Assembly (NCBI GenBank): GCA_964371955.1
Contig: CAYJPB010000005.1
Coordinates: 1-39,528, forward strand
Direction: 5' to 3'
DNA length: 39,528 nt
From: an uncultured Desulfovibrionaceae bacterium
GTDB lineage: Bacteria; Desulfobacterota; Desulfovibrionia; Desulfovibrionales; Desulfovibrionaceae
Shown: positions 13,915 to 39,402 of the stretch, piece after piece
Layout of the letters: each line of letters opens with the position of its first letter
Position numbering within the stretch: the first letter of the stretch is position 1
Made by a program: the position numbers and the translations under genes
Notes under the pieces: model-generated
Told to the model about the DNA's origin: nothing
Database searches by the model: none
What the model saw: only the letters and a program-made list of their open reading frames with translations

Positions 13915-13934
13915 GTTTTTGTAATATTTTATTT

Positions 13935-14811: not shown

Positions 14812-14840
14812 TTGACCTAAAAAAAAATTCAATGTATTGT
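14812..14840 (+). promoter_or_regulatory. Candidate sigma-70 promoter for the AIM24-family gene
   Basis: TTGACC (14812-14817), 17-nt spacer, TATTGT (14835-14840). It lies ~48 nt upstream of ATG 14888. Confidence 0.35.
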
Positions 14841-14887
14841 ATTATTAGTTTTATTTTACATTAAAATTATTAATAAGTGAGGTCTTT

Positions 14888-15595: not shown

Positions 15596-15604
15596 TTAAT
15601 AAAA

Positions 15605-15645
15605 TATTATGGCAAGAATCTGGTTTTTCGATACTTGCCATAATA
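15605..15645. terminator. Hairpin between convergent AIM24-family gene and def
   Basis: TATTATGGCAAG (15605-15616) pairs with CTTGCCATAATA (15634-15645). On the minus strand it is followed by TTTTATTAA. No strong U-tract on the plus strand. Confidence 0.45.
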
Positions 15646-15654
15646 TAAACAGTT

Positions 15655-16155
15655 TTACCCTCTAAGCTTTTTTAGATACATTGAACGCTTCAAGTGTGAA
15701 AGATGCGTTATAAATGTTTTTCCGTCGAGGTGATCGCATTCGTGCTGAATACATGCGGAAAGATATTCTTTCCCCTCGATTTCTATAGGATTATTTTCTA
15801 AATCAACGCCTTCAACTTTCACATGGCACGGGCGGGCAACCTCACTGCGTAATCCGAGAACGGAAAGACAACCTTCGTTTTCTTTGTGCTTTTTTGGGTC
15901 GAGTATAGTGAGTTTGGGGTTGATGACAAGAGTAAACTCTTGCTCTTCTGCATCAGGATTTGCAAGGCTTTTGTCAATAATAACCATGCGATAAGGTTCG
16001 CCTATTTGCGTTGCAGCAAGTCCGACTCCGCCTACGTGGTTGAGAGTATCGAACATATCTGTGGCGACTCTTCTAATTTCGTCATTAATTTCTAAAACCG
16101 GTTCAGCTACCTTTGAAAGATAGGGGTCGGGGTAGGTGAGTATTTTTCTAAGCAT
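15655..16155 (-). CDS. def: Peptide deformylase
   Basis: 166 aa with GVGLAATQIG, EGCLS and HECDHLDG metal/active-site motifs. Confidence 0.92.
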   Translation of the reverse strand: MLRKILTYPDPYLSKVAEPVLEINDEIRRVATDMFDTLNHVGGVGLAATQIGEPYRMVIIDKSLANPDAEEQEFTLVINPKLTILDPKKHKENEGCLSVLGLRSEVARPCHVKVEGVDLENNPIEIEGKEYLSACIQHECDHLDGKTFITHLSHLKRSMYLKKLRG

Positions 16156-16164
16156 ATAAAATCT

Positions 16165-17988
16165 CTAATCTTGTTTTTTCTCTATAAGGCGTATTCCAAG
16201 CTCGCGTAATTGTTTACTGTCAACAACTGAGGGAGCTTCGGAAAGAAGACATGTGCCACGCTGTGTTTTAGGAAATGCTATAACATCGCGGATTGATGGG
16301 GAATTGGTGAGAAGCATAACTATGCGGTCAAGTCCGAAAGCTATTCCGGCATGTGGCGGCGCACCAAATTCTAAAGAATTAATGAAGAAGCCAAATTGTT
16401 CTTGTGCACTTTCTTCTGTAAATCCAAGCGCTTTAAACATCAGTGATTGCGCGTGCATTGTGTGGTTACGCACAGAGCCGCCCCCAATTTCGTAGCCGTT
16501 CATCACTAAATCATACGCACGGGAAAGGCATTTTGAGGGGTCGCTTTCAAGATATTGTGCATGTTCTTCATTCACAGCTGTGAATGGGTGATGGCAAGCA
16601 ACATAACGCTTTTCTTCTTCGTCGTATTCAAAAAGTGGGAAGTCGGTAACCCAGAGAAGGTTATGGGTGTTTTCGTCAATAAGCTCAAATTGTTGTGCAA
16701 GTTTTACACGTAAATTTCCAAGAGCGGCGTTAACCATGGAGGCATCACCTGCTTGAAAAAAGACAATATCACCGATTTTCAAATCAAGACGTTCTTGAAG
16801 CGCTTGTTTTTCTTCTTCTGAGAAGAATTTAACAATGGGTGATTGCCATTCGTTTTCTTTTATTTTTATCCACGCCAAGCCTGTTGCGCCATAAATTTTC
16901 ACGAATTCAGTCAAATCATCAATATGCTTTCTGGAAAGTTCTTCGGCTTTATCAATTTTCAAAGCTTTCACCAATTGTGCGGAAGCAAAAACTTTGAAGC
17001 CTGAATTTGCAAATATATCAGTGAGTTCTGTCAATTTCAAATCAAAGCGAGTATCGGGTTTATCTACGCCGTAATCTCTCATGGCATCGTGCCACGTAAT
17101 GCGAGCAAAAGGCGCTTCGACCTCTTTATTCAATGTTTCTTTAAATATTGATTTCATCAGGCCTTCAGCCATATCCATGACAGTATCTTCATCTGCGAAA
17201 GACATTTCTATATCAATCTGCGTGAATTCGGGCTGACGATCGGCACGCAAATCTTCATCACGGAAGCAGCGAACTATTTGGTAATAGCGATCAATACCCG
17301 CTACCATGCTCATTTGCTTGAACATTTGCGGAGATTGCGGAAGCGCAAAGAATGAACCGGGATTTAAGCGGCTGGGCACTAAAAAGTCACGCGCGCCTTC
17401 AGGAGTGGATTTTGTAAGAATTGGTGTTTCCAATTCAATGAAGTTCAATGTGTCAAGGTAGTTACGAGTTGCTTGAGATGTTTTATGCCTGATAAGGAAG
17501 TTATTTGCCATTTTCGGGCGACGCATATCGAGGTAACGCCATTGCAGACGCAAGTTTTCAGAAGCTTCGGTTCTGTCTTCAATAGGGAAAGGAGGGGTTT
17601 TTGAGGTATTTAAGAGCTTCCATTCATGCACAACCACTTCCACTTCGCCGGTAGTGAGGTTTGGGTTCACCATTCCGTCTGGGCGAGGGCGCTCAAAACC
17701 TTTGATGGCAAGAACATATTCAGAGCGTATAATATGCGCATTTTCGTGTGCTTTTGGGGCGATTTCAGGGCTGAAAACAAGTTGTGTAAGCCCATTTCTG
17801 TCTCGTAAATCCACAAATATAAGTCCGCCATGATCACGGCGGTATTGTGTCCAGCCCATAAGGCATACTTCTTCGGTATCATTGGAAATATTGAGCGTTG
17901 CGCAATCGTGGCTGCGTTGCCAATCTTCCAATGGCGCTATAAATTTAGCGTGATCTGCTTGAACATCTTGGTTTTGTGTCTGACTCAT
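16165..17988 (-). CDS. aspS: Aspartyl-tRNA synthetase (bacterial type)
   Basis: 607 aa. Class II motifs are present (…[23 protein letters not shown]…, …GGGSVRNH…, …[12 protein letters not shown]…), along with the N-terminal OB-fold region. Confidence 0.93.
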
Positions 17989-18018
17989 AAAATACCCTTA
18001 ATCCTTGAATTTATAATA

Positions 18019-19275
18019 CTATATATTTTGTAGATAAGTAAGAAGAAAATCTTGACGGATAATTTCTTGTTCACCATTCGTCATATTCTTTACAACTATT
18101 GTTTCATCTTTTATCTCGTTACCACCGAGGATAAGGGCAAGCTGTGCCCCCGATTTATCTGCTTGGCGCATAAGCGATTTCATGCTACGCTCCCCAAAAG
18201 CGTATTCTCCGCGAAAACCTTCGCTACGCAACTCTTGAGCGAGTAAAAAGCCTGTGTTTTTAGCTTCTTTATCAACGACGGCAAGGTAGAAGGTTGGCTT
18301 TTGTTCTTTGGGGGGAGTTGCGAGCATAGAAAGGCGTTCCATACCGCATGCAAAGCCAATTCCTGAAACATCACCTCCGCCGATTTGCTTGACTAAACCG
18401 TCGTATCTTCCGCCGCCTGCTATAGAAGATTGCGAACCGATTCCCGTTGAAACAGCTTCAAAAGTAGTGCGGATATAGTAGTCCAAGCCACGCACAAGCT
18501 TCGGATTGATTTCATAGTCTACGCCGCTCATATCGAGCATTTGAATTACAGAGGAAAAGTGTGAAGAACATTCGGTACAGTGAAAGTCTGAAATTTTTGG
18601 AGCTGCGTTTACATATTCAATACATTTTGCAACCTTACAGTCAAGCACGCGCAAGGGGTTTGTGTGTATTCTTCTTTTGCAATCTTCGCAAAGGGCTTCA
18701 CTGTCAAGCTCAAGCAAATATTTTGTGAGCGCTTCTTTATATAAAGGACGACACTCATGGCAACCCAGCGAATTTACATGCATAACAAAATTTTCAATGC
18801 CTAAATTTTTCAAGAAAAGGCTGAGCATGTAAACGATTTCTGCATCGTTTTCCGGTTCAGGCGACCCAAGACATTCACAATTGATTTGATGAAATTGCCT
18901 CATTCTGCCTTTTTGTGGTCTTTCATAGCGGAACATCGGTCCTGTTGTGAAGAATTTATATACGCTTCCTTGGCTGTACATCTTGCTTTCCACAAATGCA
19001 CGCATCACTCCTGCGGTTGCTTCGGGGCGCAATGTAACGCTTCTGTCGCCTTTATCTGTGAAGGTGTACATTTCCTTGCCGACAATATCTGTTTCTTCAC
19101 CGATTGAGCGTGCAAAAAGCTCTGTCGATTCCAAAATCGGCGTGCGTAATTCGCTATAAGAAAATAATGAAAATAAAGAACGAGCAGTATTTTCAATATG
19201 TGTAAACATATCCGCATCTTTACCGAACATGTCGGCAAAGCCTTTTAATCCTTGTATATGTGCCATAAAATTCAC
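18019..19275 (-). CDS. hisS: Histidyl-tRNA synthetase
   Basis: 418 aa. It has …LRPEATAGVMRAF…, …FRYERPQKGRMRQFHQ…, …AGGGRYDGL… and …GFACGMERL…. Confidence 0.93.
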   Translation of the reverse strand: MNFMAHIQGLKGFADMFGKDADMFTHIENTARSLFSLFSYSELRTPILESTELFARSIGEETDIVGKEMYTFTDKGDRSVTLRPEATAGVMRAFVESKMYSQGSVYKFFTTGPMFRYERPQKGRMRQFHQINCECLGSPEPENDAEIVYMLSLFLKNLGIENFVMHVNSLGCHECRPLYKEALTKYLLELDSEALCEDCKRRIHTNPLRVLDCKVAKCIEYVNAAPKISDFHCTECSSHFSSVIQMLDMSGVDYEINPKLVRGLDYYIRTTFEAVSTGIGSQSSIAGGGRYDGLVKQIGGGDVSGIGFACGMERLSMLATPPKEQKPTFYLAVVDKEAKNTGFLLAQELRSEGFRGEYAFGERSMKSLMRQADKSGAQLALILGGNEIKDETIVVKNMTNGEQEIIRQDFLLTYLQNI

Positions 19276-19407
19276 CTAAAAAATTTCAATAAATAACTTG
19301 CTCTTATATCCTTTTTCTTTATGCTTGTCAAATGAGATTGCTTATTGTTTATATATTGTTATTTCAGTGTGTTATATGTTGTTTTGCAAAGATAACTTTG
19401 TTTTTTA

Positions 19408-26887: not shown

Positions 26888-29800
26888 ATGCAAACAAAGA
26901 ATGCCATTAAGAATCTAAAAAACCGTTATATTGCGGTACTTAAAAAATGTAATCTCCTGAACAAACTTTTTTCACCCATGCGCTCGGGGCTTATGCTTGC
27001 AAGCTTTTGTGCGTGTTTTGTCCTTGCGCCCTCACTCAATGCACAAACGCTCAATTTAACCACCGATGATTACTTTATTATTGAGCCTGTGCAATCAGGC
27101 GTAAATTATTACAGCACTTTTAATTGGCTGGAAAATAATGTGACTACCAATTATGGCTTGTTATTCAAAAACGGGCTGAATCCCCCAACTCCCCCCACCA
27201 ATAATCCATTTTTCGGAAACGGGCTTCCCCCAACACCTACATACAGCAATCCCGTCGATTTAGCTAATGCCATGGTGCTTCAAGAGAATCCCAATTACAC
27301 CATAGCCACAGGGAGTGGTGGTTTAGAGGATTTTACTTTGAACATTGCAGGGCAAAATTTAAATTATACTGTAACCGCTCCCACAACTTCTTTGGGGCGC
27401 ATTGCGGCACTCACAACAGATATTGATAATGATGTTTTTTATGGGCTTAATTCCGCTACTAATGGTGGAGCAATTTTTGTTACTTTTTCCAATCATAATT
27501 TAAACATCAACGGCAGCTTCATAAATAATACTTCTAATGGTCTTGGCGGAGCTATTGTTCTTTGGGGAAGCAACAACAATACTGTTAACGGAACATTTAT
27601 CGGTAACCATGCTGTAAATAATGGTGGTGCTATTTATGCTCAAGCAAGTGGTAACAATTCCATGAGCGGAATATTTATAGGTAACACATCAGAGACGCAC
27701 GGTGGGGCAATTGCTAATGCTTTTGAAATCAGTGTCATTGATGGCACTTTCATCGGCAACAGTGCCAGAAACTTTGGTGGAGCGATATTTAATACTCAGA
27801 GTCGAAGCATAGCCTCCATTGATGGCACATTTATAGCTAACCGTGCAGAACAAGGCGGCGCTGTTTTTAATGCTGAACCTCAAATACTTCCTTCGGGTGT
27901 TTATAGCTCTATAGGTCCTATTAATGCAAGCTTTATAGGAAACACTGCCACAACTTGGGGCGGTGCTATTTCCAACAGAGGCGTTATAGATTCCATTAAT
28001 GGACTTTTTATGGAAAATACAGCCGGTGAATACGGCGGCGCAATAAATAACTATGCCTCAACCAATACTGAAATAGCTTCTATAGGCTCTATTGACGCAA
28101 GTTTTATCAATAACAGAACCACAGGCGCAGACGGGCTCGGCGGTGCTGTGTGGACGAACAGGGATTTAACTTTTCAAGCAAATAACAGAATAAATGTTTT
28201 TAGCGGTAATATGGATAGCACGGGCTACAATGCCATTTATGTTTCTGATGAAAAACACGATTCCCTTGTAGACCTGCATTTCAATATGTACGGTAATGGC
28301 GGTTTTGTTTTTAACGATAGCATAAATTCAAATGCGCTGGGTTTTTATGATATGAATATCACCGGGCAAAGTCACACAAATAACACTTTTTACATGAATA
28401 ATACTCTTTCGGGAGTAAAACGTCTTTCTCTACGCAATGCAAACCTTGTTTTAACCGCTGACAGCACTTTTGTAGTAGGTCTTTTGAATCGGAAAATGGG
28501 AATTGGCATCATTCAAGGTTTCAACCATTCGGAGATAATCACAACAGACGCAAATAATAATGTGATCGTCACACCGCCCTCTACCGCTACATTGACAGTC
28601 GAAGCAGGGGCAAAGCTGATAATCGGAGATACCTCATCTTATGCCATAAACGGTTTTGGGGATGGAAATCGCTCTACTTCTGTTACTGTTGTAAGCGGTT
28701 TTCCACTTGGCAATGCCACTATTGGAGAAGGTGCTTGGCAATATGAAAATATCAGCACCGATTCTACTTTGCAAGCGGCACAAATGTCGAATTTTCCGGC
28801 TGATGGAGAATTTATTGTTGAAGTTTTTAAAATATTCCCCATACATATCCGTACACTTTATAATGCATACCCCATAAGCTGGGAAACAGCTGAACTTTTT
28901 CTCAACTTTTCGCAAGTCGGTGAAGACGTGAACAGCCCTTATGTTCCTTATGCTTTATTCACGCGTATTTTTGATAATACCGATCCTTATTATATGGGCA
29001 CAAATAACCATTGGCATACCGCAGCTACGGTAGAGGGCTTGTTGCAACTTGGAGTCAGTGCCGGAACTTCCTCAAATACACTCAATATAAGCGACAGTAC
29101 GTATGAAAATTTGTATTCTCGCATGAATCATTTGCTTTTGGATAACAACACCAATATTGTCTATCTTGAAGATGTGCGCAATGCACAATTGGGTTTACCT
29201 GCGGGAAGCGAGCAACATTCTTCAAGAAGCGGACTTGCCATTTGGGCGACTCCATTCTATAATTATACACATACAAGCGGTTTATCGGCAGGATACCGTG
29301 AATATGGGTACGACAGCAATCTCGGCGGTCTATCTTTTGGTGTGGATTATACTTTCCCTGATGGTAAGCTCGTTGGGTTAGTCATAAACGGTGGCGGCGG
29401 TTATTTGGAATCGTATGGAGATTTCAATCATACAACAAATAAATTTGCTTTTTCAGGCTTCTCTTTATACGGTTTAACACAATGGAATACATTTGATATA
29501 GCGATGGATTTTGGATATACCTATGCGTATAATGATGTCACGCAGTTTTTACCTCCCACTCTTGGCTTTCCGCAAGCAAACGCCCTTATCGGCACTCATC
29601 TTATTACAATCGGCGCACAAGTTCTTTACCCTTATGAATGGCAATCATACGATGTAAATGCCTATGTTGGCTTGAGATATACAAATATAATAACAACTCC
29701 CTATGATGTTGACGTAAATGGCACTACTGTTGTGCACACTGCTTTAGATTTTCAAAATTTTGTTTCAATACCTGCCGGTGTAACTCTCACAAGGGATTAT

Positions 29801-30073
29801 TCTTTTGCAAATGGTTGGAATATCTCTCCAAGTTATAACTTTGGCTTTACTGTTTCGGTCGGTGAGCTAAGCACGACTTCTCGTTCTTCAATCCCGACAG
29901 TAGCAGGACGAGCAAGAAATGATGCGCAAAGTGTGGATATTTTATCATTTAATGGAGGAATTGGGATTGAAGCGGCAAAGAATAACATGAGTTTTGCTTT
30001 GAATTACGATTTGCAAGCTTCATTCAGTGAAATGAGTCATAATGTATTTGCCACATTCGTTTACGAGTTCTAA
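26888..30073 (+). CDS. Autotransporter outer-membrane protein with Pmp-type (GGA[IV] / FxxN) passenger repeats
   Basis: 1061 aa with an extended signal peptide ending …APSLNAQ. Nine GGA[IV] motifs alternate with F(I/M)xN between ~27470 and 28150. The C-terminal ~280 aa is beta-barrel-like (alternating aromatic/Gly) and ends in …FVYEF. Confidence 0.85.
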   Translation: MQTKNAIKNLKNRYIAVLKKCNLLNKLFSPMRSGLMLASFCACFVLAPSLNAQTLNLTTDDYFIIEPVQSGVNYYSTFNWLENNVTTNYGLLFKNGLNPPTPPTNNPFFGNGLPPTPTYSNPVDLANAMVLQENPNYTIATGSGGLEDFTLNIAGQNLNYTVTAPTTSLGRIAALTTDIDNDVFYGLNSATNGGAIFVTFSNHNLNINGSFINNTSNGLGGAIVLWGSNNNTVNGTFIGNHAVNNGGAIYAQASGNNSMSGIFIGNTSETHGGAIANAFEISVIDGTFIGNSARNFGGAIFNTQSRSIASIDGTFIANRAEQGGAVFNAEPQILPSGVYSSIGPINASFIGNTATTWGGAISNRGVIDSINGLFMENTAGEYGGAINNYASTNTEIASIGSIDASFINNRTTGADGLGGAVWTNRDLTFQANNRINVFSGNMDSTGYNAIYVSDEKHDSLVDLHFNMYGNGGFVFNDSINSNALGFYDMNITGQSHTNNTFYMNNTLSGVKRLSLRNANLVLTADSTFVVGLLNRKMGIGIIQGFNHSEIITTDANNNVIVTPPSTATLTVEAGAKLIIGDTSSYAINGFGDGNRSTSVTVVSGFPLGNATIGEGAWQYENISTDSTLQAAQMSNFPADGEFIVEVFKIFPIHIRTLYNAYPISWETAELFLNFSQVGEDVNSPYVPYALFTRIFDNTDPYYMGTNNHWHTAATVEGLLQLGVSAGTSSNTLNISDSTYENLYSRMNHLLLDNNTNIVYLEDVRNAQLGLPAGSEQHSSRSGLAIWATPFYNYTHTSGLSAGYREYGYDSNLGGLSFGVDYTFPDGKLVGLVINGGGGYLESYGDFNHTTNKFAFSGFSLYGLTQWNTFDIAMDFGYTYAYNDVTQFLPPTLGFPQANALIGTHLITIGAQVLYPYEWQSYDVNAYVGLRYTNIITTPYDVDVNGTTVVHTALDFQNFVSIPAGVTLTRDYSFANGWNISPSYNFGFTVSVGELSTTSRSSIPTVAGRARNDAQSVDILSFNGGIGIEAAKNNMSFALNYDLQASFSEMSHNVFATFVYEF

Positions 30074-31483: not shown

Positions 31484-31565
31484 CCAATTTTTTTCATATA
31501 ATAAAAATATTTTTATTAAAATTATAAATAACATATAGTTATGTATGTGTTCATATATTAAAAAA

Positions 31566-31609
31566 ATTACAGCAATTTTTGAATTATCAAAGATTGCTGT
31601 AATTTTTTT
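31566..31609. terminator. Bidirectional rho-independent terminator between kdsA and sulfatase-like gene A
   Basis: A perfect 11-bp stem, ATTACAGCAAT (31566-31576) with ATTGCTGTAAT (31593-31603), is followed by T7 and preceded by A7. A second hairpin, TCCCCTTT-agtg-AAAGGGGA, lies at ~31614-31643. Confidence 0.7.
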
Positions 31610-31666: not shown

Positions 31667-33250
31667 TTAGCCCATTACATTTAATTCAGTCATATATTCG
31701 CGCAATGTATCGAAAAGTTTCTTTGCGATTTCAGGTTCTTTATCGATGATATTGTTGAGTTGGAAAGGATCGTTTTTGCGATCATACAATTCATCTTTTT
31801 CAGGAACATCAACTTTCGCACCCGGAGTACATGTCCATTGTTCTTCACCGTCAAGAGTTGCGGCTTCTTTATGGCGAGTTGCGGCATCTTTTTCTGCATC
31901 TTTTGAAATACTATCCACCATGTCAAGCAAGCTTTTTCCGCCTGATGCCGTAAGGTGTGAGCTGGATTCGGAAGTTGTTTCGTTGTAGAAATCCAACACC
32001 ATACTTGCATCTTCAATTTTATTTACCCAGTGAACATAGGAATAGTCGTCGGTATAGATAGCCCATGAATATTTGTGGTAACCTGCGATAGCAAAGTCAC
32101 GTACTTTTTCCACTTCACCGCGACACATTGGCAATAAGCTTTTGCCTTGCATGTCAGGGTGAACACCGATTCCAAGCCAGTCGCACACAGTTGGAGCAAC
32201 GTCGCATGATTGTACAAAGCCTTTGAGGCGTTGACCTGCTGCAATACCGGGAGCACGAAGAAGTAATGGAGTGTGTACCAATTCTTCATATGGCCAAGGA
32301 CGCACTTTACGCATCAAACCGTGGCCGTGTTCGCCGTTACCAAGAGGTTCACCGTGATCGGAAACCATCATAATAAGTGTGTTTTGGTTCAAGCCGAGTC
32401 TGTCCATTGCGTCTAAAAGTTTACCGAGGTATTTATCGCAAAGCGTAACAAGTTCAGCGTAAAGCATACGGATATGCTTTAATTGTGGTTCGGTGTATAA
32501 ACCTTCAACCAATTCCATGATTGGTAAGAATTCGTCTTTACCTGTATAATCAGGGTCGTATGGGCATTTCATATCAGGGTTATATACTGATGGTGGATCC
32601 CAAGGTTCGTGTGGATCGAATGAGTCAATCCAGAGATAGAATTGCTTGTTTCTGTCAACTTGTTCAAGATATTCAATTGCCTTTGTTATTGTTTTTGCAA
32701 CGTAGCGGTTTTCTTCTTTTTCGCCGCCGTATTGACGTTGTTTCAAATACGCGCCCAATTCGTGCAAGTTATCTTTAGCGGCACCTTCACCTAAGCGTGC
32801 GGCATAGGCATCGTAAGTGTGTTGTTCAATATAATCTTCAGGTTTTAAGTGGATAAGTTCATCTTCTTCATAGAAGAAGTGGTCGGCTTCATGGCCGTGT
32901 GTGAACCAAACTTTATCAAAAGCTCTTGTGAAGCCGAATTTTGGCAAACGGTACATTGGGCAGTCAAAAATCAAAGCGGTATCAATCGGACGTCCCCAGC
33001 AAAGATCTGCGATAGTGGTGTCTTCCATTGTCAATGGGCTCCAACCGCTGTAAGGCAAGGTGTAGCGGCCTGTGTGCATGGCGCGGCGGCAAGGCACAGT
33101 TGGGCAACCTTCTGTATAAGAATTTTCAAATAAAACACCTTCACGAGCGAGTCTGTCCATATTTGGAGTTTTAATCCACGTGTTACCGTAGGCACCCACA
33201 TAGTTGAATTGAAGGGAGTCAAACATTAGAACGATAGCATTTTTAGTCAT
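31667..33250 (-). CDS. Cytoplasmic sulfatase-fold (alkaline-phosphatase superfamily) enzyme, paralog A, with Thr at the formylglycine position
   Basis: 527 aa with no signal peptide. Sulfatase-family landmarks: N-terminal IVLMFDSLQ, PTVPCRRAMHTGRY aligned to CxPxRxxxxTGR, DPHEPW, and VSDHGEPLGNGEHGHG. The Thr51 codon is at 33098-33100. Confidence 0.8.
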   Translation of the reverse strand: MTKNAIVLMFDSLQFNYVGAYGNTWIKTPNMDRLAREGVLFENSYTEGCPTVPCRRAMHTGRYTLPYSGWSPLTMEDTTIADLCWGRPIDTALIFDCPMYRLPKFGFTRAFDKVWFTHGHEADHFFYEEDELIHLKPEDYIEQHTYDAYAARLGEGAAKDNLHELGAYLKQRQYGGEKEENRYVAKTITKAIEYLEQVDRNKQFYLWIDSFDPHEPWDPPSVYNPDMKCPYDPDYTGKDEFLPIMELVEGLYTEPQLKHIRMLYAELVTLCDKYLGKLLDAMDRLGLNQNTLIMMVSDHGEPLGNGEHGHGLMRKVRPWPYEELVHTPLLLRAPGIAAGQRLKGFVQSCDVAPTVCDWLGIGVHPDMQGKSLLPMCRGEVEKVRDFAIAGYHKYSWAIYTDDYSYVHWVNKIEDASMVLDFYNETTSESSSHLTASGGKSLLDMVDSISKDAEKDAATRHKEAATLDGEEQWTCTPGAKVDVPEKDELYDRKNDPFQLNNIIDKEPEIAKKLFDTLREYMTELNVMG

Positions 33251-33285
33251 AAAAAATTCTCCATAATTTTATTTGTGATTAATAT

Positions 33286-33301
33286 TGCAATTTGTGTGCC
33301 A
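33286..33301 (-). promoter_or_regulatory. Sigma-54 (-24/-12) promoter of sulfatase-like gene A
   Basis: The minus strand reads TGGCACACAAATTGCA, a match to TGGCAC-N5-TTGCA. It lies ~35 nt upstream of ATG 33250, with a GGAG RBS in between. Confidence 0.8.
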
Positions 33302-33318
33302 TAATTTTAAGTCAAAAA

Positions 33319-33331
33319 TATCAATATATTA
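33319..33331. promoter_or_regulatory. IHF-consensus-like site between UAS and sigma-54 promoter A
   Basis: TATCAATATATTA fits WATCAANNNNTTR. A counterpart sits at the same offset in promoter B. The AT-rich context makes chance matches likely. Confidence 0.3.
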
Positions 33332-33417
33332 TTTTTTTTCTTATAATAAAAATCTGTGTATATAAAGTGGTTTTTATTTGACAAGCAACTATCTATTTGA
33401 TATGTTTCTAAAAAAAT

Positions 33418-33442
33418 AAATGTGATAATACATTTTATGTGA
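33418..33442. promoter_or_regulatory. Conserved upstream element (putative enhancer-binding-protein site) for promoter A; it also abuts the activator gene start
   Basis: AAATGTGATAATACATTTTATGTGA is nearly identical (1 mismatch) to 38318-38342. Its near edge (33418) lies 117 bp upstream of the promoter edge (33301). It contains TGT-N6-ACA and a direct ATGTGA repeat. Confidence 0.55.
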
Positions 33443-33454
33443 ATGAGGCATACA

Positions 33455-34978
33455 ATGAAAATAGATTTTGATTTTTTAGAACTTTTGGCTAAGACGACGG
33501 AAGCTTTGCCTGAGAACGATGCTTTGATAATACTTTTCAAATACTTGCATGAGAGAATTCCTTTTGATATTGCAGTTTGTTTTTCAATTAACAGAGCTGA
33601 AAAACTCTATACAAGTTTTATGGAGTATTCTGCAAAACAAATTGTTCCTCAATACTATAATAAAAAGGACACTGTCTTACCTATTTCAGTACTTATAGAG
33701 AATTTTGGCGAAGATTTTTCAAAAACTTCTATTGCTGACGATCTCAGTAATAATGAGGATTATGCAAGGTTTTTCGCAAATTCACCTTATTCGGGTTTGT
33801 CAAGCATTTCTGTGCCAATATATCATGATTATGAAAAAAATCACTTTATGTGTATTTTGTTTCTTTCAAATTACAAAAATACGTTTAATGAAAAACACGC
33901 GCAAGTAATCGATCTACTAAAGCCATTGTTTCAAGAATTGATACTCTCACTTTATCTAAATAACCCCGGAGAAAATGTCAGCCTGTCACCCTCAGGTAAA
34001 ATCGCAACAACTTTTGAAGAGCAACTTTCCGCATGCCCTGATTTGGCTGAAGTAACCGAAGCTGTGCATAATGTGGCAGACTTTGATACCACAGTGTTGA
34101 TACATGGTGAAACGGGCTCAGGAAAAGAAATTGTTGCGGAGGTTATCCATTCTTTGTCCGACAGGTACGACAAGCCATTTGTACGTGTAAATTGTTCGGC
34201 TATTCCTGAAACTCTAATAGAAAGTGAATTTTTTGGCTTTGAAAAAGGGGCTTTTACCGGCGCCATTCAATCTCGTAAGGGATATTTTGAGCAAGCGCAT
34301 AAAGGAACCATTTATCTTGATGAAGTTGGAGAACTCTCTCTTAACTCGCAAGTGCGTTTGTTGCGTGTTTTGGAAAACAGAGAAATTCGCAGAATCGGAA
34401 GTGAAAAATCTATCAATTTGGATTTACGGATAATCGCGGCAACAAATAAAGATTTGTGGGAAATGGTGAAAAGGAAGCTTTTTCGCGAAGATTTGTACTA
34501 TCGCTTAAATGTCTATCCTATTACTGTACCTCCTTTGAGGGAAAGGAGACGCGATATATTTGTACTTGCCCAATATTATTATAATTACTATGTGCAAAAA
34601 TTTTCTCCGAAAACATTTGCAAAACTTTCACCCAAAAATATTTATCAACTGGCAAACTTTAGTTGGCCCGGAAATGTGCGACAGTTAAGGCATGCCATTG
34701 AAAGAGCTCTTGTTGACAGTAATAATAGTAAGCATAATGTACTGGATTTTAGCTTTTTGATAGAAACTACGGTAAAAACTCACAAAACAAATGTTACAGA
34801 ATTAAAAGAAGAAATTGAGAAAGTTCTTAAGTTGACTAATGGCAGAATTCAAGGTGAACAGGGTGCTGCCGAGCTTTTAAATATTAATCCCGCAACCTTA
34901 CGTTCGCGTATGCGTACACTTGGTATACCCTTTACAAAAAAAGATATTCAAAAACAAAAAGAGCAATCCCAAAATTAA
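33455..34978 (+). CDS. Sigma-54-dependent transcriptional activator (GAF-like sensor, AAA+ domain, Fis-type HTH)
   Basis: Walker A GETGSGKE, the GAFTGA loop (EKGAFTGA), …IYLDEVGEL…, …RLLRVLENREIRRIG… and the C-terminal HTH …AAELLNINPATLRSRMRTLGI are present. There is no receiver domain. ATG 33455 with a GAGG RBS is preferred over the track start 33443. Confidence 0.88.
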   Translation: MKIDFDFLELLAKTTEALPENDALIILFKYLHERIPFDIAVCFSINRAEKLYTSFMEYSAKQIVPQYYNKKDTVLPISVLIENFGEDFSKTSIADDLSNNEDYARFFANSPYSGLSSISVPIYHDYEKNHFMCILFLSNYKNTFNEKHAQVIDLLKPLFQELILSLYLNNPGENVSLSPSGKIATTFEEQLSACPDLAEVTEAVHNVADFDTTVLIHGETGSGKEIVAEVIHSLSDRYDKPFVRVNCSAIPETLIESEFFGFEKGAFTGAIQSRKGYFEQAHKGTIYLDEVGELSLNSQVRLLRVLENREIRRIGSEKSINLDLRIIAATNKDLWEMVKRKLFREDLYYRLNVYPITVPPLRERRRDIFVLAQYYYNYYVQKFSPKTFAKLSPKNIYQLANFSWPGNVRQLRHAIERALVDSNNSKHNVLDFSFLIETTVKTHKTNVTELKEEIEKVLKLTNGRIQGEQGAAELLNINPATLRSRMRTLGIPFTKKDIQKQKEQSQN

Positions 34979-35038
34979 TGGGAAATGCCCTTTACTGTTT
35001 ACTACATTATCGAGTAAGAATTATGCAGTATTTTATGG

Positions 35039-36448
35039 TTATTTTTCTTCAACTTCCCACGCTGTTTTGCTTTGTGGAACTTGAACGAGTTTTGCTAAAA
35101 CGAAAATTGCTACGCCAATGGCGAATGAAATTCCTATCGGAATCCACGCATTAGATCCATAAAGCGGTTCCATGTGCGCAATTGCGGGGATAAGAATAAC
35201 AGTAGGAATTGAAAGTGCACTGCCAAGTCCCATTCTTAATGGTACAGGTGATTTGTTTTCAGGATCGACCAAGCGCAATAAGATAAATGCCGTGCTCACT
35301 GTTCCTGTAAGGTTTCCGAAAACGTAAGCAAAATATTCCGGACCGTATTCTTTCATTTTGCGTGAATAATACCAGAGTAATCCGGCGATAACCATTGTTG
35401 AAACTATAACAGAAGCTAAGTAAGGAATCATGTATTGTGCAACTTGACCGATTTGAATGCTGATAAAAGTTGAACATACCAAGAAATCTACCAATGTGCC
35501 TGAAATTCTGTTTGTTACACCTACACAAAGCAAATGTCCTTTACCCATTTTTGTAAGAAGAATACGAACGCCTACAGCAATAAGAGCACCGAAAAGGAAG
35601 AAAGTTGTCCATACAAATATTTTTAATGCAGGCGGAAGGATTATAAAGAGAATAAGGCAAATAATAAATGATAAGGCATAGGTTGCGAAACCTAAGGCTA
35701 TGTGCCATGCCAATACATCAATACTTGTTGCAGAAGTGGTTTGTCTTCCGGCTTCAGCAGTATCTGAACATTCATCATAAAAACCACATTCTTCTTCTTC
35801 TGATGGACATGTGACTATTTCAAGTTTCTTTTTACGTGCAATGATATTTACAAGAAAAACACCTACAATAATTGCCACAGCAAAACCCATTGCACCTGTA
35901 GCAAGACCAAAGTCAGGCATGCCGGCAAATGTTGTTGCTGCATCCCAGATTGTACCGATTGTGAAAGCTTGTCCCGGCCCCATAATAAATCCATACATTG
36001 TCAATGAACCGACAGTTTGAGGAGCAGAGTTAAGTCCAATCATGGCAAGTATGGTTGTAATAGCCATTGCAGCCGCTAAAGTGAAAAAACTTACCGAGGT
36101 AGAGGCGGAAATGTATGCCAAAATAGCTCTACCTTCGGAAACTTCGGATTTTTGTTTTGTGGGCATTTTTAACCCAACATAAATCCATGTAAGGTTAAAT
36201 ACATCGTATACAAAATTTTGCGTGATACCAATATCAAGTTTTAACCCCGTAGCATCAATAAGACCGGTGCTTTGACAAATCAAGCCAACCGTTCCGCCAA
36301 TAATGCACGATGGGATTAAGTATTTACGAAATAAAGGAAATACAGCCCTCAACAACATTCCGACAAGTAGAAAGAAGCTTATCCAAGCAAATACAAATAA
36401 ACCGTCAAACGCAACAGGAGCCATAGGGGGCATGGTGAAATCAGTCAT
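35039..36448 (-). CDS. Polytopic transporter, GltS-like (sodium/glutamate symporter, ESS family-like)
   Basis: 469 aa with ≥10 hydrophobic helices. The N-terminal …RKYLIPSCIIGGTVGL… resembles the E. coli GltS segment …KKYTIPEPVAGGLLVA…. A central charged loop follows …ARKKKLE…. This is a family-level call only. Confidence 0.5.
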   Translation of the reverse strand: MTDFTMPPMAPVAFDGLFVFAWISFFLLVGMLLRAVFPLFRKYLIPSCIIGGTVGLICQSTGLIDATGLKLDIGITQNFVYDVFNLTWIYVGLKMPTKQKSEVSEGRAILAYISASTSVSFFTLAAAMAITTILAMIGLNSAPQTVGSLTMYGFIMGPGQAFTIGTIWDAATTFAGMPDFGLATGAMGFAVAIIVGVFLVNIIARKKKLEIVTCPSEEEECGFYDECSDTAEAGRQTTSATSIDVLAWHIALGFATYALSFIICLILFIILPPALKIFVWTTFFLFGALIAVGVRILLTKMGKGHLLCVGVTNRISGTLVDFLVCSTFISIQIGQVAQYMIPYLASVIVSTMVIAGLLWYYSRKMKEYGPEYFAYVFGNLTGTVSTAFILLRLVDPENKSPVPLRMGLGSALSIPTVILIPAIAHMEPLYGSNAWIPIGISFAIGVAIFVLAKLVQVPQSKTAWEVEEK

Positions 36449-36520
36449 AATTTACCTCTTTTGTAGGTTATAACCGTTAGTGAAATTTATCACAATATAT
36501 GTAAGTTTTCTATCAATTCA

Positions 36521-36561
36521 AACTTCCTCCCCAAACTTTTTATGTGTGTGAGGAGGAAGTT
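36521..36561 (-). other. Intercistronic RNA hairpin between sulfatase-like gene B and the transporter gene
   Basis: AACTTCCTCC (36521-36530) pairs with GGAGGAAGTT (36552-36561). There is no U-tract, so it is not a canonical terminator. Confidence 0.4.
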
Positions 36562-36567
36562 ATGTAT

Positions 36568-38148
36568 TTATAATGCGTCCATTACGCTTAATTCAGTAAT
36601 ATATTCACGCAAAATGTCATATAATTTCTTTGCGACATCGGGGTGTTTGTCAATAATATTGTTGAGTTGGAAAGGATCGTTCTTACGATCGTAAAGTTCG
36701 TCACTTTCAGGCACTTCGGCTGTGCTGGCGGGGGTACAAGTCCATTGTTCTTCTCCGTCAAGAGAAGCGCTTTCTTTGTGGTGCTTTACTGCATCGTCGC
36801 TGGAGTAGCCATCAACAAGATCGATAAAGCTTTTTCCGCCAACTCCCTTAAGGTGAGCGTTGGTAACGCTGTCTGTTTCAGCATAGAATGCCAAAGCGAT
36901 TTCATTTTCGCCAACTTCTTTCACCCAGTGGATAAATGAATAATCTTCGGTGTAGATAGCCCATGAATATTTACAATAGCCTGCGATGGCAAAATCGCGC
37001 ACTTTTTCCACTTCACCACGACACAATGGCAATAAGCTTTTGCCTTGCATGTCGGGATGAACACCGATTCCGAGCCAGTCACATACAGTCGGCGCAACGT
37101 CACAAGATTGTACAAAACCTTTGATACGTTGACCTGCGGCAATGCCCGGAGCACGAAGAAGCATAGGTGCGTGAACCAATTCTTCATACGGCCATGGATT
37201 TGCTTTACGCATTAATCCGTGTCCATGTTCGCCGTTACCAAGAGGTTCACCATGATCTGAAACCATCATAAAGAGTGTATCTTGATTCATGCCAAGTCTG
37301 TCTATTGTGTCTAATAATTTGCCGAGGTATTTATCACAGAGAGTGACAAGTTCTGCATAAAGCATACGGATGTGGTTGAGTTGCGGTTCGGTGTATATAC
37401 CCTCTACATGTCCCGGATAAGGCAAGAATTCGTCTTTTCCTGTGTAGTCGGGATCGTATGGGCATTTTTTGTCAGGGTCATAAACTGATGGCGGATCCCA
37501 AGGCTCGTGTGGATCGAAAGAGTCAATCCAGAGATAGAATTGCTTGTTTCTGTCTACTTGTTCAAGATATTCGATGGCTTTGCCAATTGTCTTTGCTACA
37601 TAGCGATTTTCATCTTTCTCTCCGCCGTACTGGCGTTGCTTGAGATAGCAAGAAAGTTCATGAAGTGTTATTTCGTTTGCGCGTTCGCCCAACTTAGCTT
37701 CATAGGCTTTATAGGTTGCATCATCGATGTAGTCTTTAGCATTAAGATGAATAAGTTCATCTTTTTCATAATAGTAGTTATCGCCTTCGTGCCCATGTGT
37801 GAACCAAACTTTATCAAACGCGCGCGTATAACCAAATTTTGGTAAGCGATACATAGGACAGTCAAAAATAAGAGCTGTGTCAATAGGACGACCCCAGCAA
37901 AGATCGGCAATGGTTGTGTCTTTCATGGTAAGTGGCACCCAGCCTGTGTAAGGCAAGGTGTAACGTCCGGTGTGCATGGCTCGACGGCAAGGAACTGTTG
38001 GAACACCTTCAATATAACAGTTCTCAAACAAAACACCTTCACGGGCCAATCGGTCCATGTTAGGGGTTTTAATCCAAGTGTTGCCATACGCTCCAATGTA
38101 GTTGAATTGGAGGGAGTCAAACATTAAAACGATTGCGTTTTTTTGCAT
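36568..38148 (-). CDS. Cytoplasmic sulfatase-fold enzyme, paralog B, with Thr at the formylglycine position
   Basis: 526 aa, collinear with and by eye mostly identical to paralog A. It carries the same PTVPCRRAMHTGRY motif (Thr51 codon at 37996-37998), DPHEPW and VSDHGEPLGNGEHGHG. Confidence 0.8.
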   Translation of the reverse strand: MQKNAIVLMFDSLQFNYIGAYGNTWIKTPNMDRLAREGVLFENCYIEGVPTVPCRRAMHTGRYTLPYTGWVPLTMKDTTIADLCWGRPIDTALIFDCPMYRLPKFGYTRAFDKVWFTHGHEGDNYYYEKDELIHLNAKDYIDDATYKAYEAKLGERANEITLHELSCYLKQRQYGGEKDENRYVAKTIGKAIEYLEQVDRNKQFYLWIDSFDPHEPWDPPSVYDPDKKCPYDPDYTGKDEFLPYPGHVEGIYTEPQLNHIRMLYAELVTLCDKYLGKLLDTIDRLGMNQDTLFMMVSDHGEPLGNGEHGHGLMRKANPWPYEELVHAPMLLRAPGIAAGQRIKGFVQSCDVAPTVCDWLGIGVHPDMQGKSLLPLCRGEVEKVRDFAIAGYCKYSWAIYTEDYSFIHWVKEVGENEIALAFYAETDSVTNAHLKGVGGKSFIDLVDGYSSDDAVKHHKESASLDGEEQWTCTPASTAEVPESDELYDRKNDPFQLNNIIDKHPDVAKKLYDILREYITELSVMDAL

Positions 38149-38183
38149 AGTAAATCTCCTATTTTTTTATTTGTGAATAATGT

Positions 38184-38199
38184 TGCAAGTTGTATGCCA
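38184..38199 (-). promoter_or_regulatory. Sigma-54 (-24/-12) promoter of sulfatase-like gene B (probably also driving the transporter)
   Basis: The minus strand reads TGGCATACAACTTGCA (TGGCAT-N5-TTGCA). It lies ~35 nt upstream of ATG 38148, with a GGAG RBS. Confidence 0.75.
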
Positions 38200-38215
38200 T
38201 AAAAATCACTAAGAA

Positions 38216-38228
38216 AATCAAATTATTA
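38216..38228. promoter_or_regulatory. IHF-consensus-like site, promoter B
   Basis: AATCAAATTATTA fits WATCAANNNNTTR. It lies 17 bp from the promoter edge, versus 18 bp in promoter A. Confidence 0.3.
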
Positions 38229-38237
38229 TACTTCTGT

Positions 38238-38274
38238 GAATGTGTTATTTATGTGTGAGAATGTGTTATTTATG
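38238..38274. repeat. Two exact 16-bp direct repeats with 21-bp periodicity
   Basis: GAATGTGTTATTTATG occurs at 38238-38253 and 38259-38274, separated by TGTGA. It shares the ATGTG(A/T) core with the conserved upstream element. Confidence 0.6.
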
Positions 38275-38317
38275 AATCTATTGTGTATAATTATCTAATA
38301 ATCTAGAAAAAATACAA

Positions 38318-38342
38318 AAATGTGAAAATACATTTTATGTGA
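38318..38342. promoter_or_regulatory. Conserved upstream element (putative enhancer-binding-protein site) for promoter B
   Basis: AAATGTGAAAATACATTTTATGTGA. Its near edge (38318) lies 119 bp upstream of the promoter edge (38199), matching the 117 bp seen at promoter A. Confidence 0.55.
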
Positions 38343-38508
38343 TAATTCTCACACTTGTATGATAAAAGAGAAAATATTTGGAAAATTTAACAACTATATT
38401 CTAACATTCTAATTTATTTTATTTAATTTATGATAATTTAATTTGCATTATTTTGAAAAAGGATATACTACTTTCTCACATTTTCTATCTAGGTTGAAAA
38501 ACAAATAT

Positions 38509-39402
38509 ATGAGATTAGTCACTAATAAATATTTCTTTATTTTTTGCTTGCTTACGCTTTACCTTTGCTGGGGCTCAACATACATTTTGACAAAGTTTAT
38601 ACTTTTACATTGCCCCGGAATTATGCTTACTTCTTTGCGCATGACTTTTGCGGGGCTAATTTTGATTATTATCAGCCGTTTTATGGGTGAGAAAATTGTA
38701 TTCACCTACAAAGATTTTCTGGCGTATTTAGTGCTTGGTTTTTTCTTGGTTGTGATGGGCGCCGCATTTATCAGCAAGGGGCAAGAAAGTGTTTCTTCGG
38801 GAACAACGGCAATGCTTTTGAGTGTTGTGCCGACGTGGATGGTGCTTGCTGATTGGTATTTTGCAAAAATTCCGCCAAGTCGTGTGCAGATTATTGGACT
38901 ATGCATGGGTATTGTTGCGATGGGGTGGATGCAATGGCATCAAGGCGCGAATGGGCAAGCATCACTTGTTGGTTTTATCTTGATTTTGCTCTCTACAATC
39001 GGCTGGGTTTACGGTTCACAACTCACAAAAACAATACGCACGGCAACGCCTATGTCTCTTTTGCGCTCAACAGGTTTTATGATGCTTGTGGGGGGAATGG
39101 AGTGCTTTATTTTTGCCTTGATTACAGGCGAACGCTTGACGGGGATCAATATTGTACCACAATTTCTTTTCCCTTTTGCTTTGTCTGTGCTTACAGCTGT
39201 TTGTGGCTATGCATCGTATTTATGGCTTTTGCAGAAAACACGCCCGATGATTGCTATTTCTTATGAATTTGTTAATCCGGTTATTGCATTATATCTTGGG
39301 TGGCTTTTTGGAGGCGAAGAGGTGGACACCACTTTAATGATGGCGTGCGCGCTTCTTATTCTTTCAGCATTCTTTGCTGTTTCCAATAAAAACCCACATT
39401 AG
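38509..39402 (+). CDS. EamA/DMT-superfamily transporter
   Basis: 10-TM layout with two EamA-like halves (…LCWGSTYILTKF… and …GWVYGSQLTK…). ATG 38509 is preferred over the track TTG 38443 because the first TM helix begins ~10 aa after it. Confidence 0.7.
   Translation: MRLVTNKYFFIFCLLTLYLCWGSTYILTKFILLHCPGIMLTSLRMTFAGLILIIISRFMGEKIVFTYKDFLAYLVLGFFLVVMGAAFISKGQESVSSGTTAMLLSVVPTWMVLADWYFAKIPPSRVQIIGLCMGIVAMGWMQWHQGANGQASLVGFILILLSTIGWVYGSQLTKTIRTATPMSLLRSTGFMMLVGGMECFIFALITGERLTGINIVPQFLFPFALSVLTAVCGYASYLWLLQKTRPMIAISYEFVNPVIALYLGWLFGGEEVDTTLMMACALLILSAFFAVSNKNPH

Follow-up and report, generated by a model that had tools for sequence, protein, structure and literature searches.

Four genes, at positions 31667-38148, lie within a 39,528-nt stretch of DNA from an uncultured Desulfovibrionaceae bacterium (contig CAYJPB010000005.1 of assembly GCA_964371955.1; the whole stretch is called here the window). 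They encode two proteins of the sulfatase fold (paralogs A and B), a permease, and an activator of sigma-54-dependent transcription. It is probable, though far from assured, that together they form a substrate-inducible module with which a low-GC, Desulfovibrionaceae-like bacterium imports an ester and cleaves it by a route that does not depend on formylglycine. Both enzymes carry threonine where sulfatases carry the cysteine or serine that becomes formylglycine, and they are not alone in this. They belong to a large, unstudied family of Thr-type enzymes, and the association of such an enzyme with an importer of organic anions and a regulator is recurrent, expanded in the Desulfobacterota, Bilophila included.

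Threonine in the place of formylglycine

A reading of the sequence alone (below, the sequence-only reading) had described two paralogs of about 527 amino acids (aa) with a sulfatase fold and no signal peptide. It had judged them to be cytoplasmic, with no maturase gene in the locus and with a catalytic residue that is not a formylglycine precursor. All of this is borne out. Calling open reading frames (ORFs) reproduces the four genes exactly. The two paralogs, 81% identical over their full length, match the Pfam family Sulfatase (PF00884; E 4e-38 and 1e-37) along with SGSH_C (E 1e-16), and have a secondary match to Phosphodiest (PF01663; E about 6e-11). Their closest structures in the PDB are those of S1 sulfatases and of the group of cytoplasmic arylsulfatases and phosphonate monoester hydrolases (PMHs): 5g2v, 4upi, 4upl, 2vqr, 2w8s and choline sulfatases. 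At least 55 sulfatase or PMH chains are found at E <= 1e-20.

The fold is therefore recognized by the profile searches that the sequence-only reading had called for, but every curated NCBIfam equivalog cut-off is missed. Paralog A scores 139 as arylsulfatase PRK13759 (cut-off 481), 111 as PehA (900), 95 as choline sulfatase (433) and 83 as Mn-dependent arylsulfatase (850). Matches to the LtaS and MCR types in the same collection are weak (E 1e-3 to 1e-5, or 15-25 bits against cut-offs of 970-1250). An exact-sequence look-up in public records found no entry for paralog A, paralog B or the activator.

In the alignments, residue 4 of the paralogs stands opposite residue ~28-30 of secreted sulfatases, and Asp11 is already the first ligand of the metal, which leaves no room for a signal peptide. 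The catalytic domain begins at residue 3, and there is no transmembrane segment. As for a maturase, no ORF of at least 120 aa anywhere in the window has a Pfam match to a radical-SAM/anSME or FGE maturase, and no maturase gene recurs among the 80 related loci described below, though another part of the genome could encode one.

In both paralogs T51, within P-T-V-P-C-R-R-A-M-H-T-G-R, occupies the column that holds the formylglycine-forming Cys or Ser in 5g2v, 4upi, 6pt6 and 4upl. The residues that bind metal and ester in AtsA (D13/D14, D317/N318, H211 and K375) appear to have counterparts, in part, in D11, D298, H299, H214 and K315, all invariant or nearly so. The second Asp (or Gln) of the sulfatase metal site is replaced by Ser or Thr in the Thr-type enzymes. 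The sulfatase motif G-K-W-H has fared differently: its K-W-H falls on V-W-F of paralog A in a pairwise sequence alignment with 6pt6, so that the Lys/His pair that services the hydrate of formylglycine, numbered K113/H115 in AtsA (PMC5066984), appears to be gone.

Judged from these alignments, the Thr-type active site would be a metal-dependent one in which ester binding has been kept and the machinery specific to formylglycine dropped. Very likely the enzymes are active, independent of formylglycine, and cytoplasmic, acting on an anionic ester that has been imported. With D11, D298, H299, R55, H214 and K315 retained and the Lys/His pair lost, I infer that threonine attacks the ester directly and that no maturase is called for.

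Predicted control by sigma-54

A scan of the 39.5-kb window for the exact sigma-54 promoter pattern TGGCAY-N5-TTGCW yields two matches and no others, and each stands 36 nt 5' of the ATG of one of the paralogs. Farther upstream of each is a copy of a 22-mer, TCACATAAAATGTATT[A/T]TCACA, which occurs twice in the window where 0 copies are expected by chance. Between 22-mer and promoter, in both control regions, there is a match to the IHF consensus (WATCAANNNNTTR); these are 2 of the 9 such matches in the window. To judge by these shared parts, the control regions of A and B are clearly duplicated. Upstream of B only, two direct repeats with half-sites resembling TGTGA may be extra sites for the activator. 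The positions of all these elements are given in Table 1.

The activator, transcribed divergently from the paralogs, has the expected anatomy of a sigma-54 enhancer-binding protein: a Sigma54_activat domain (PF00158, E 1e-68) followed by AAA_lid_14, with the GAFTGA loop evident in the translation, and a Fis-type helix-turn-helix (HTH_8, E 2e-4) whose 21.3 bits fall slightly below the Pfam cut-off of 22. Structures of NtrC1, ZraR and NifA are matched at E 1e-67 to 1e-70. There is no receiver domain. The sequence-only reading was correct in calling this a sigma-54 enhancer-binding protein without a receiver; its further claim of a GAF-like sensor fares less well. The first ~190 residues of the window protein have no Pfam match, and GAF_2 matches 2 of 9 relatives of the sensor, weakly (best E 0.002). 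A profile built from the nine sensors finds five chains in the PDB, all of them containing GAF domains: PtsP (3ci6), the best at E 0.004, along with 4mcw and Aquifex Nlh1 (4g3k) among them. A GAF-like sensor is plausible on these matches, but weakly so.

Since the 22-mer near paralog A lies between a sigma-70-like promoter and the ATG of the activator gene, the activator may also regulate itself. Taken together, the promoters, the shared 22-mer and the duplicated control regions uphold the claim of sigma-54 control. They lend good support to a predicted logic in which a ligand-sensing activator serves two promoters, one driving an enzyme gene and the other an enzyme gene together with that of an importer. 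Nor is this peculiar to the window: strict sigma-54 promoters precede 10 of 98 genes of the family at a distance of no more than 350 nt, where about 0.4 would be expected. The published account of the sigma-54 regulome of D. vulgaris contains no sulfatase or thioredoxin target.

The permease

The gene downstream of paralog B, separated from it by 119 nt and in the same orientation, was said to encode a GltS-like permease, and the protein does appear to be a distant member of the GltS/ESS family. The evidence comes mostly from its relatives, 747 of which were found among 1.84 billion representative sequences. Glt_symporter (PF03616) is matched by 37 of the 61 library homologs that were aligned (best E 1.4e-18) and by 2 of 5 homologs from related loci. 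By sequence, neither the protein itself nor a profile matches anything in the PDB. The AlphaFold2 (AF2) model built from a multiple sequence alignment (pLDDT 91.9) has as its top PDB matches the Na+/citrate symporter CitS, with probability 1.0 and TM-scores of 0.42-0.50. This is an elevator fold, and the match is consistent with the published relationship between the folds of GltS and CitS. The permease is probably a Na+-coupled anion symporter.

A large family with invariant threonine

When contigs taken from one genome per species were scanned, at least 594 relatives of the enzymes turned up, from which the best 80 loci (designated L001 and so on) were fetched. Among these 80 most come from Desulfovibrionaceae (Mailhella, Bilophila wadsworthia and uncultured gut metagenome-assembled genomes, or MAGs), Desulfarculales and Desulfobacterales, with Poribacteria, Armatimonadota, Acidobacteriota, Bathyarchaeia and others also represented. 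Genomes with several paralogs are common. The nearest relative, L001, is 80% identical, is likewise low in GC, and has three in-paralogs; a MAG of Desulfovibrionaceae (L012, JAVBMT010000024, about 6300-19340) packs six Thr-type paralogs and a sigma-54 activator into 13 kb.

The sequence-only reading considered the locus the most accessory-looking system in the window. That view does not survive: the locus sits among housekeeping genes, and the size of the family makes it something other than an isolated oddity.

Of the 99 relatives that were aligned from the 80 loci, 95 have threonine as the residue of the nucleophile column, in the form P-T-x-P-x-R; the 4 remaining copies are ordinary sulfatases with C-x-P-x-R. 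Invariant or nearly invariant across the family are D11, T51, P53, R55, D212, H214, D298, H299, H310, R314, K315 and E322/E323. Cysteines are conserved at columns 20, 229 and 474 (C229 in 85% and C474 in 96%). Cys54, the C of T-V-P-C-R, was considered as a catalytic or resolving thiol and rejected. It is unlikely in that role because position 54 varies (C in 44 of the 99, V in 32, T in 12, A in 5), and V, T or A occupies it in members linked to thioredoxin. Cysteine columns 117, 167 and 257, which are enriched in thioredoxin-linked members, were set aside as confounded by phylogeny.

Neither the PDB, NCBIfam and Pfam nor the literature open to searching yielded a Thr-type member that has been characterised, so the sequence-only reading's own ground for giving up its case, a known Thr subfamily with a known substrate, did not come to light. 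Literature searches on Thr-type sulfatases, on sulfatases with thioredoxin, and on Bilophila sulfatases turned up no relevant paper. The Mn-dependent arylsulfatase EfAS fails as a precedent, as it carries Cys/formylglycine. The authors of SulfAtlas leave Thr-bearing PF00884 proteins unclassified (PMC5066984), and public databases label the Bilophila protein merely "sulfatase" or "arylsulfatase A-like".

Neighbours of the related genes

ORFs of the 80 fetched loci were clustered and representatives annotated. In 29 of 78 loci the enzyme has, no farther than 4 kb away, an importer of organic anions (TRAP, TTT, DASS/CitMHS, NhaC or GltS-like). A sigma-54 activator is adjacent in 15 loci, with a sensor of the window's type in L001, L005, L007, L043 and L054, and a GltS-like permease is present at L001, L004, L007, L008, L024 and L043. 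The conserved neighbourhood that the sequence-only reading thought worth seeking is found in the form of a trio: on other contigs of Desulfovibrionaceae (L001, L004, L007 and L043) the enzyme again occurs with a GltS-like permease and an activator of the kind seen here, and at L008 and L024 the set is present in part. Because activator, importer and sigma-54 promoter recur at related loci, the module of the window is best seen as one instance of a recurrent design.

Then there is the matter of thioredoxin. Within 4 kb of the enzyme, 18 of the 78 loci have a thioredoxin (Trx, with CPHC or CPNC), a flavoprotein resembling thioredoxin reductase (TrxR), or both, often in tight clusters on the same strand. 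These loci span Desulfovibrionales, Desulfarculales, Desulfobacterales and a MAG of Acidobacteriota, and tight clusters that also include the importer occur at L003, L018, L022 and L027. At L003 the genes are TRAP-QM, TRAP-P, enzyme, Trx, TrxR and a Trx-like protein, and the enzyme shares 68-69% identity with paralog A. In Bilophila wadsworthia ATCC 49260 (L022, 6701-12953) there is a seven-gene, operon-like series of Trx-like, TctB, TctA, TctC, enzyme, Trx (CPHC) and TrxR. An ortholog of B. wadsworthia with Trx and TrxR genes beside it has the accession EFV45949.1.

The cluster at L018, from a MAG of Desulfarculaceae (OY776512, 5388-16652), has eleven genes on one strand, in the order Trx, TrxR, Trx-like, TctB, TctA, TctC, enzyme, HypD activase, HypD and pyrroline-5-carboxylate (P5C) dehydrogenase. 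The radical-SAM gene here, tried as a maturase, proved to be the HypD activase. HypD scores 1320 bits against a cut-off of 1100, and P5C dehydrogenase 800 against 614. The presence of HypD, its activase and P5C dehydrogenase in one cluster implies a conjugate of hydroxyproline as the substrate of this ortholog. The enzymes of L022 and L018 are 81% identical, which suggests horizontal transfer.

A GH129 gene (the alpha-N-acetylgalactosaminidase family) directly follows the enzyme at L007 (11864-14188), and an M24 peptidase resembling prolidase or creatinase follows it at L008 (2295-3551); these two annotations hint at substrates like glyco-amino acids or peptides. Arylsulfotransferases of the ASST type are neighbours at L021 and L075, and at L026 a methyltransferase of the MtaA type carries a fused thioredoxin-like domain. 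The 57 immediate neighbours that were scanned are heterogeneous (LysR, DUF362, TIM-barrel and others) and give no signal specific to sulfate or phosphate.

A proposal for import and cleavage

Gene content, motifs, promoter architecture and conserved neighbourhood are matters of observation; the ligand, the direction of transport, and the way in which the ester is cleaved and the enzyme turns over I infer as follows. The activator, a one-component protein with a ligand sensor, would bind the 22-bp element 138-140 bp upstream of both promoters, probably assisted at each by DNA bending by IHF. It would switch on paralog A, and also paralog B together with the anion symporter of the GltS/ESS family. 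The permease would import an organic anion of small size, most likely an ester that is acidic and resembles an amino acid, and in the cytoplasm a metal-activated threonine alkoxide would attack the ester directly, no maturase being needed. The GltS-family permease, the hydroxyproline genes of L018, and the prolidase-like and GH129 neighbours suggest more narrowly an ester of a hydroxy amino acid or a glyco-amino acid.

As to the group removed, the balance tips slightly to a sulfate ester over a phosphate or phosphonate ester. Hints in favour of sulfate come from the apparent ancestry of the enzymes, the retained signature context, and the fact that the nearest solved or curated relatives are sulfatases and PMHs. 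Further hints are the expansion of paralogs in lineages that respire organosulfur compounds, the predominance of such Desulfobacterota among the best-matching relatives of the scan, the ASST-like and DASS neighbours, and control of a kind that answers to substrate and not of the Pho type.

A number of considerations count against the proposal. The first is chemical. The Thr nucleophiles of the superfamily that have been characterised (NPP, EptA/MCR, LtaS, PafA, PhnA) are all known as carriers of phosphoryl groups in transfer reactions. Sulfatases in which serine stands in for formylglycine are trapped as the sulfo-enzyme, which makes simple hydrolytic turnover by a sulfatase with threonine chemically doubtful. 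Plain hydrolysis also fails to account for the Trx and TrxR genes beside many relatives, and the family offers no characterised member to appeal to. On the side of regulation and transport, the GAF signal of the sensor is weak, its single-sequence AF2 model (pLDDT 43) is uninformative, the window permease matches no Pfam family at E <= 10, and rpoN is not in the window. Lastly, Bilophila wadsworthia has the family yet cannot respire sulfate (PMC8667426). The sequence-only reading had spoken of an import-then-hydrolyse module. The regulation, the cytoplasmic Thr enzymes and the recurring trio of genes support that reading in part; hydrolysis was assumed, and both the expected trapping of a sulfo-threonine and the Trx/TrxR operons tell against it.

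The strongest competitor, which I consider possible though unlikely, is that the enzymes are cytoplasmic phosphodiesterases, phosphonate monoester hydrolases or phosphomonoesterases, working through a phospho-threonine intermediate in the manner of NPP, EptA and LtaS on an imported organophosphate, and that their likeness to sulfatases is a matter of ancestry. The precedent of threonine in all characterised phosphoryl-transferring relatives speaks for it, as do the PF01663 match, the weak matches to LtaS and MCR, the presence of promiscuous enzymes of the PehA/PMH type among the closest relatives, and a D/T/D/H metal site like that of the LtaS and PMH types. Against these must be set the substrate-type sigma-54 control, with no phosphate-uptake or Pho-type gene among the annotated neighbours, and the many paralogs per genome in sulfur-respiring lineages, a habit of sulfatases elsewhere and not of phosphatases. 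The ASST-like neighbours and the strict retention of the P-x-R context of the sulfatase signature also fit it poorly. And the link to thioredoxin goes as unexplained by a phosphoesterase as by a sulfatase.

That link has a natural place in a second alternative, one I hold to be improbable: the enzyme is not a hydrolase but a thioredoxin-coupled reductase of sulfate esters. Thr51 would take the sulfuryl group, and the dithiol of thioredoxin would resolve sulfo-threonine by way of a thiosulfonate to sulfite and oxidised thioredoxin, as in the chemistry of PAPS/APS reductase. In many relatives the thioredoxin would come from a gene in cis; for the enzymes of the window it would act in trans. What raises the idea at all is the problem of sulfo-enzyme trapping together with the Bilophila operon: B. 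wadsworthia keeps the importer-enzyme-Trx-TrxR operon although it lacks Sat and AprAB, cannot respire sulfate, and lives on sulfite donors (PMC8667426). It is consistent with tight clusters of importer, enzyme and Trx or TrxR among the 18 thioredoxin-linked loci, one of which (L003) has an enzyme so close to paralog A, and with an invariant Thr beside the loss of the His/Lys pair that services formylglycine. D. vulgaris, moreover, is reported to have a pair, TR3/Trx3, whose function is still unknown (PMC5627308), and the Trx and TrxR of these loci may be partners of the same kind.

Reduction of sulfate esters has no biochemical precedent, however. The window has no thioredoxin or thioredoxin reductase gene, as judged by Pfam annotation of its ORFs of at least 120 aa, and the same Trx/TrxR partners are missing from 60 of the 78 loci. 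None of the active-site cysteines is universal: of 72 sequences, 59 have C54 or C316 and 13 have neither, some thioredoxin-linked members included. By my own estimate, not a computation, the redox potential is borderline for alkyl sulfate esters. Besides, thioredoxin could be there to serve a neighbouring function or to keep C229 and C474 reduced; these two residues, far apart in the sequence of a cytoplasmic enzyme, may form a redox-sensitive pair.

The last alternative, that the threonine is converted to a beta-keto mimic of formylglycine (by a distant radical-SAM maturase, for example) or that the proteins are catalytically dead and merely bind or regulate, is very improbable. The P-x-R context that maturases recognize is strictly conserved and oxidation of threonine would yield a ketone, as the SulfAtlas authors point out (PMC5066984), but maturase-like genes are missing from the window and recur nowhere in the 80 loci, the His/Lys pair that a hydrated carbonyl requires is lost, and dead proteins would hardly keep metal ligands and ester-binding residues invariant in genes that belong to catabolic operons.

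Comparison with known systems

If the proposal of import followed by direct attack by threonine is right, the enzymes of the window would work most like the cytoplasmic arylsulfatase/PMH group while failing the mark that defines S1 sulfatases, a Cys or Ser converted to formylglycine. With that group (SpAS, 4upi/4upl; RlPMH, 2vqr; BcPMH, 2w8s; choline sulfatase) they share fold and domain order (profile E 1e-34 to 1e-41), the metal ligands (Asp, Asp-His), the signature Arg of C-x-P-x-R, and the ester-binding His and Lys. They share as well the lack of a signal peptide and the logic of importing first and cleaving afterwards, exemplified by P. aeruginosa AtsA with its AtsRBC importer. They differ in having an invariant Thr in place of the nucleophile derived from Cys or Ser, Ser or Thr in place of the second Asp, and no Lys-x-His. 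They differ too in scores far under all curated cut-offs and in frequent Trx/TrxR neighbours.

Elsewhere in PF00884 there are enzymes that also use threonine, have a single metal site of the D/T/D/H type, and do without formylglycine: LtaS, EptA/MCR and OpgB. These, however, are membrane-anchored, extracytoplasmic transferases of phosphoglycerol or phosphoethanolamine, whereas the proteins of the window are soluble and cytoplasmic and have P-T-x-P-x-R. The motif context of the LtaS/EptA type is TxNxE (PMC5066984).

The activator resembles NifA, FhlA, NorR and Aquifex Nlh1 in its AAA+ domain with GAFTGA, its Fis-type helix-turn-helix, and the layout of its presumed targets, with an upstream activating sequence ~140 bp from the -24/-12 promoter and an IHF-like site between. 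It departs from these GAF-sensor activators in a sensor too divergent for Pfam GAF, and the element itself, TCACA-N12-TCACA around ACAT-N3-ATGT at its centre, corresponds to no known upstream activating sequence. The permease is allied to the symporters GltS (ESS, TC 2.A.27) and CitS (2HCT) by the PF03616 matches of its homologs and by its CitS-like model, but it is ~70 aa longer than a typical GltS and falls below every Pfam threshold.

The pathways for organosulfonates in Bilophila and Desulfovibrio (taurine/isethionate, IslAB; 2,3-dihydroxypropane-1-sulfonate, HpsG) invite comparison, since they occur in the same lineages, import organosulfur anions, and have a dedicated regulator. In one related locus the likeness extends to an enzyme coupled to the operon of a glycyl-radical enzyme, HypD. 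The chemistry is different: those pathways cleave C-S bonds by glycyl-radical enzymes, whereas the window would have an enzyme of the alkaline phosphatase fold acting on an O-ester, with any release of sulfite being hypothetical.

Surroundings of the locus

Table 1. Genes, control elements and predicted active-site residues of the locus (nucleotide positions in the window; residue numbers of paralog A)
Feature	Position	Strand	Basis or remark
Paralog A, cytoplasmic Thr-type sulfatase-fold enzyme	31667-33250	-	527 aa; ORF, Pfam, PDB alignments
Predicted active-site residues of paralog A	D11, T51, R55, H214, D298, H299, K315		alignment-based
Sigma-54 enhancer-binding protein (activator)	33443-34978	+	511 aa; ~190-aa N-terminal sensor, AAA+, Fis-type HTH
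Divergent GltS/ESS-family permease, elevator-type fold	35039-36448	-	469 aa; PF03616 matches of homologs, AF2 model
Paralog B, like A a cytoplasmic Thr-type enzyme of the sulfatase fold; heads the operon with the permease gene	36568-38148	-	526 aa
Sigma-54 promoter A, TGGCACACAAATTGCA	33286-33301	-	exact -24/-12 match, 36 nt from ATG
IHF-consensus match between upstream element and promoter A, TATCAATATATTA	33319-33331	+	consensus scan
Candidate sigma-70 promoter of activator gene, TTGACA-17-TATGTT, extended TG	33378-33406	+	upstream element lies between it and ATG
Candidate upstream activator element A, TCACATAAAATGTATTATCACA	33421-33442	-	centre-to-centre 138 bp from promoter A
Sigma-54 promoter of B-permease operon, TGGCATACAACTTGCA	38184-38199	-	exact -24/-12 match, 36 nt from ATG
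IHF-consensus match between upstream element and promoter B, AATCAAATTATTA	38216-38228	+	consensus scan
Two 19-nt direct repeats with TGTGA-like half-sites, upstream of B only, TGTGAATGTGTTATTTATG / TGAGAATGTGTTATTTATG	38235-38274	unassigned	possible extra activator sites
Candidate upstream activator element B, TCACATAAAATGTATTTTCACA	38321-38342	-	centre-to-centre 140 bp from promoter B
Hairpin with 20-bp stem between kdsA and 3' end of paralog A	31563-31606	unassigned	terminator-like scan
Perfect 10-bp inverted repeat in paralog B/permease gap, AACTTCCTCC ... GGAGGAAGTT	36521-36561	-	sequence inspection

The hairpin that separates kdsA from paralog A probably terminates transcription in both directions and delimits the module, and the inverted repeat between paralog B and the permease gene may form an attenuating or stabilising hairpin. 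A search of the window against Rfam gave no matches. Elsewhere in the window are housekeeping genes: Ala-, Asp- and His-tRNA synthetases, FtsY, Def, MurJ, IspH and KdsA. Divergent from paralog B, and sharing the control region that holds the 22-mer, is a gene for a drug/metabolite exporter of the EamA/YedA type (38443-39402, + strand). It was considered as a member of the module, as was kdsA, but neither has a homolog in any related locus, and the exporter gene for this reason probably falls outside, though it may be regulated along with it.

The GC content of the window is 0.395 and that of the closest relative, L001 (an uncultured Desulfovibrionaceae MAG), 0.355, against 0.46-0.67 in the other relatives. 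That both are far more AT-rich than typical Desulfovibrionaceae suggests a lineage that is host-associated or has a reduced genome.

Three other regions of the window may be put on record. A 1061-aa protein encoded at 26888-30073 (+ strand) has a signal-like N-terminus and repeats of the Chlamydia polymorphic membrane protein family (Chlam_PMP), of the GGAI / FxxN type; by these features it appears to be an autotransporter-like adhesin, unusual for what is apparently a Desulfovibrionaceae genome. At 6947-9766 (+ strand) two genes with FlgO domains, separated by a 93-aa ORF, are followed by a CheW-receiver fusion, and on the opposite strand (9918-12785) there is a large SBP_bac_3-GGDEF-EAL protein, so that 6947-12785 looks like a neighbourhood of motility and c-di-GMP signalling. 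At 2-2011 (- strand) the gene of a larger protein runs past the edge of the window; the C-terminal 670 aa encoded inside it have a DUF5801 domain.

What the Thr-type enzymes may mean

Annotation of a protein as a sulfatase presumes that Cys or Ser is converted to formylglycine. The Thr-type clade keeps the scaffold and has fixed threonine in that position, and its chemistry, once known, would mend the "sulfatase" annotations of a clade with at least 594 relatives in species-representative genomes and several copies per genome in Desulfobacterota of the gut and the sea. It would also put to the test whether sulfate esters can be turned over on the alkaline phosphatase scaffold when formylglycine is absent, perhaps with the help of a thiol.

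If desulfation should prove to be reductive, then sulfate esters would be sulfite donors for respiration through Dsr, bypassing Sat and Apr. Sulfite respirers that are unable to activate sulfate, Bilophila and its relatives among them, could in that case respire sulfate esters derived from hosts or algae without ATP sulfurylase or APS reductase, and the orphan systems of Desulfovibrio that resemble Trx3/TR3 would have found a role. By whichever chemistry, the clade could show which small anionic esters feed the gut bacteria that produce H2S, such as Bilophila and Mailhella. The window offers a compact and experimentally tractable version of the problem, with a single activator, a single 22-bp element and a single permease to go with two promoters and two enzymes.

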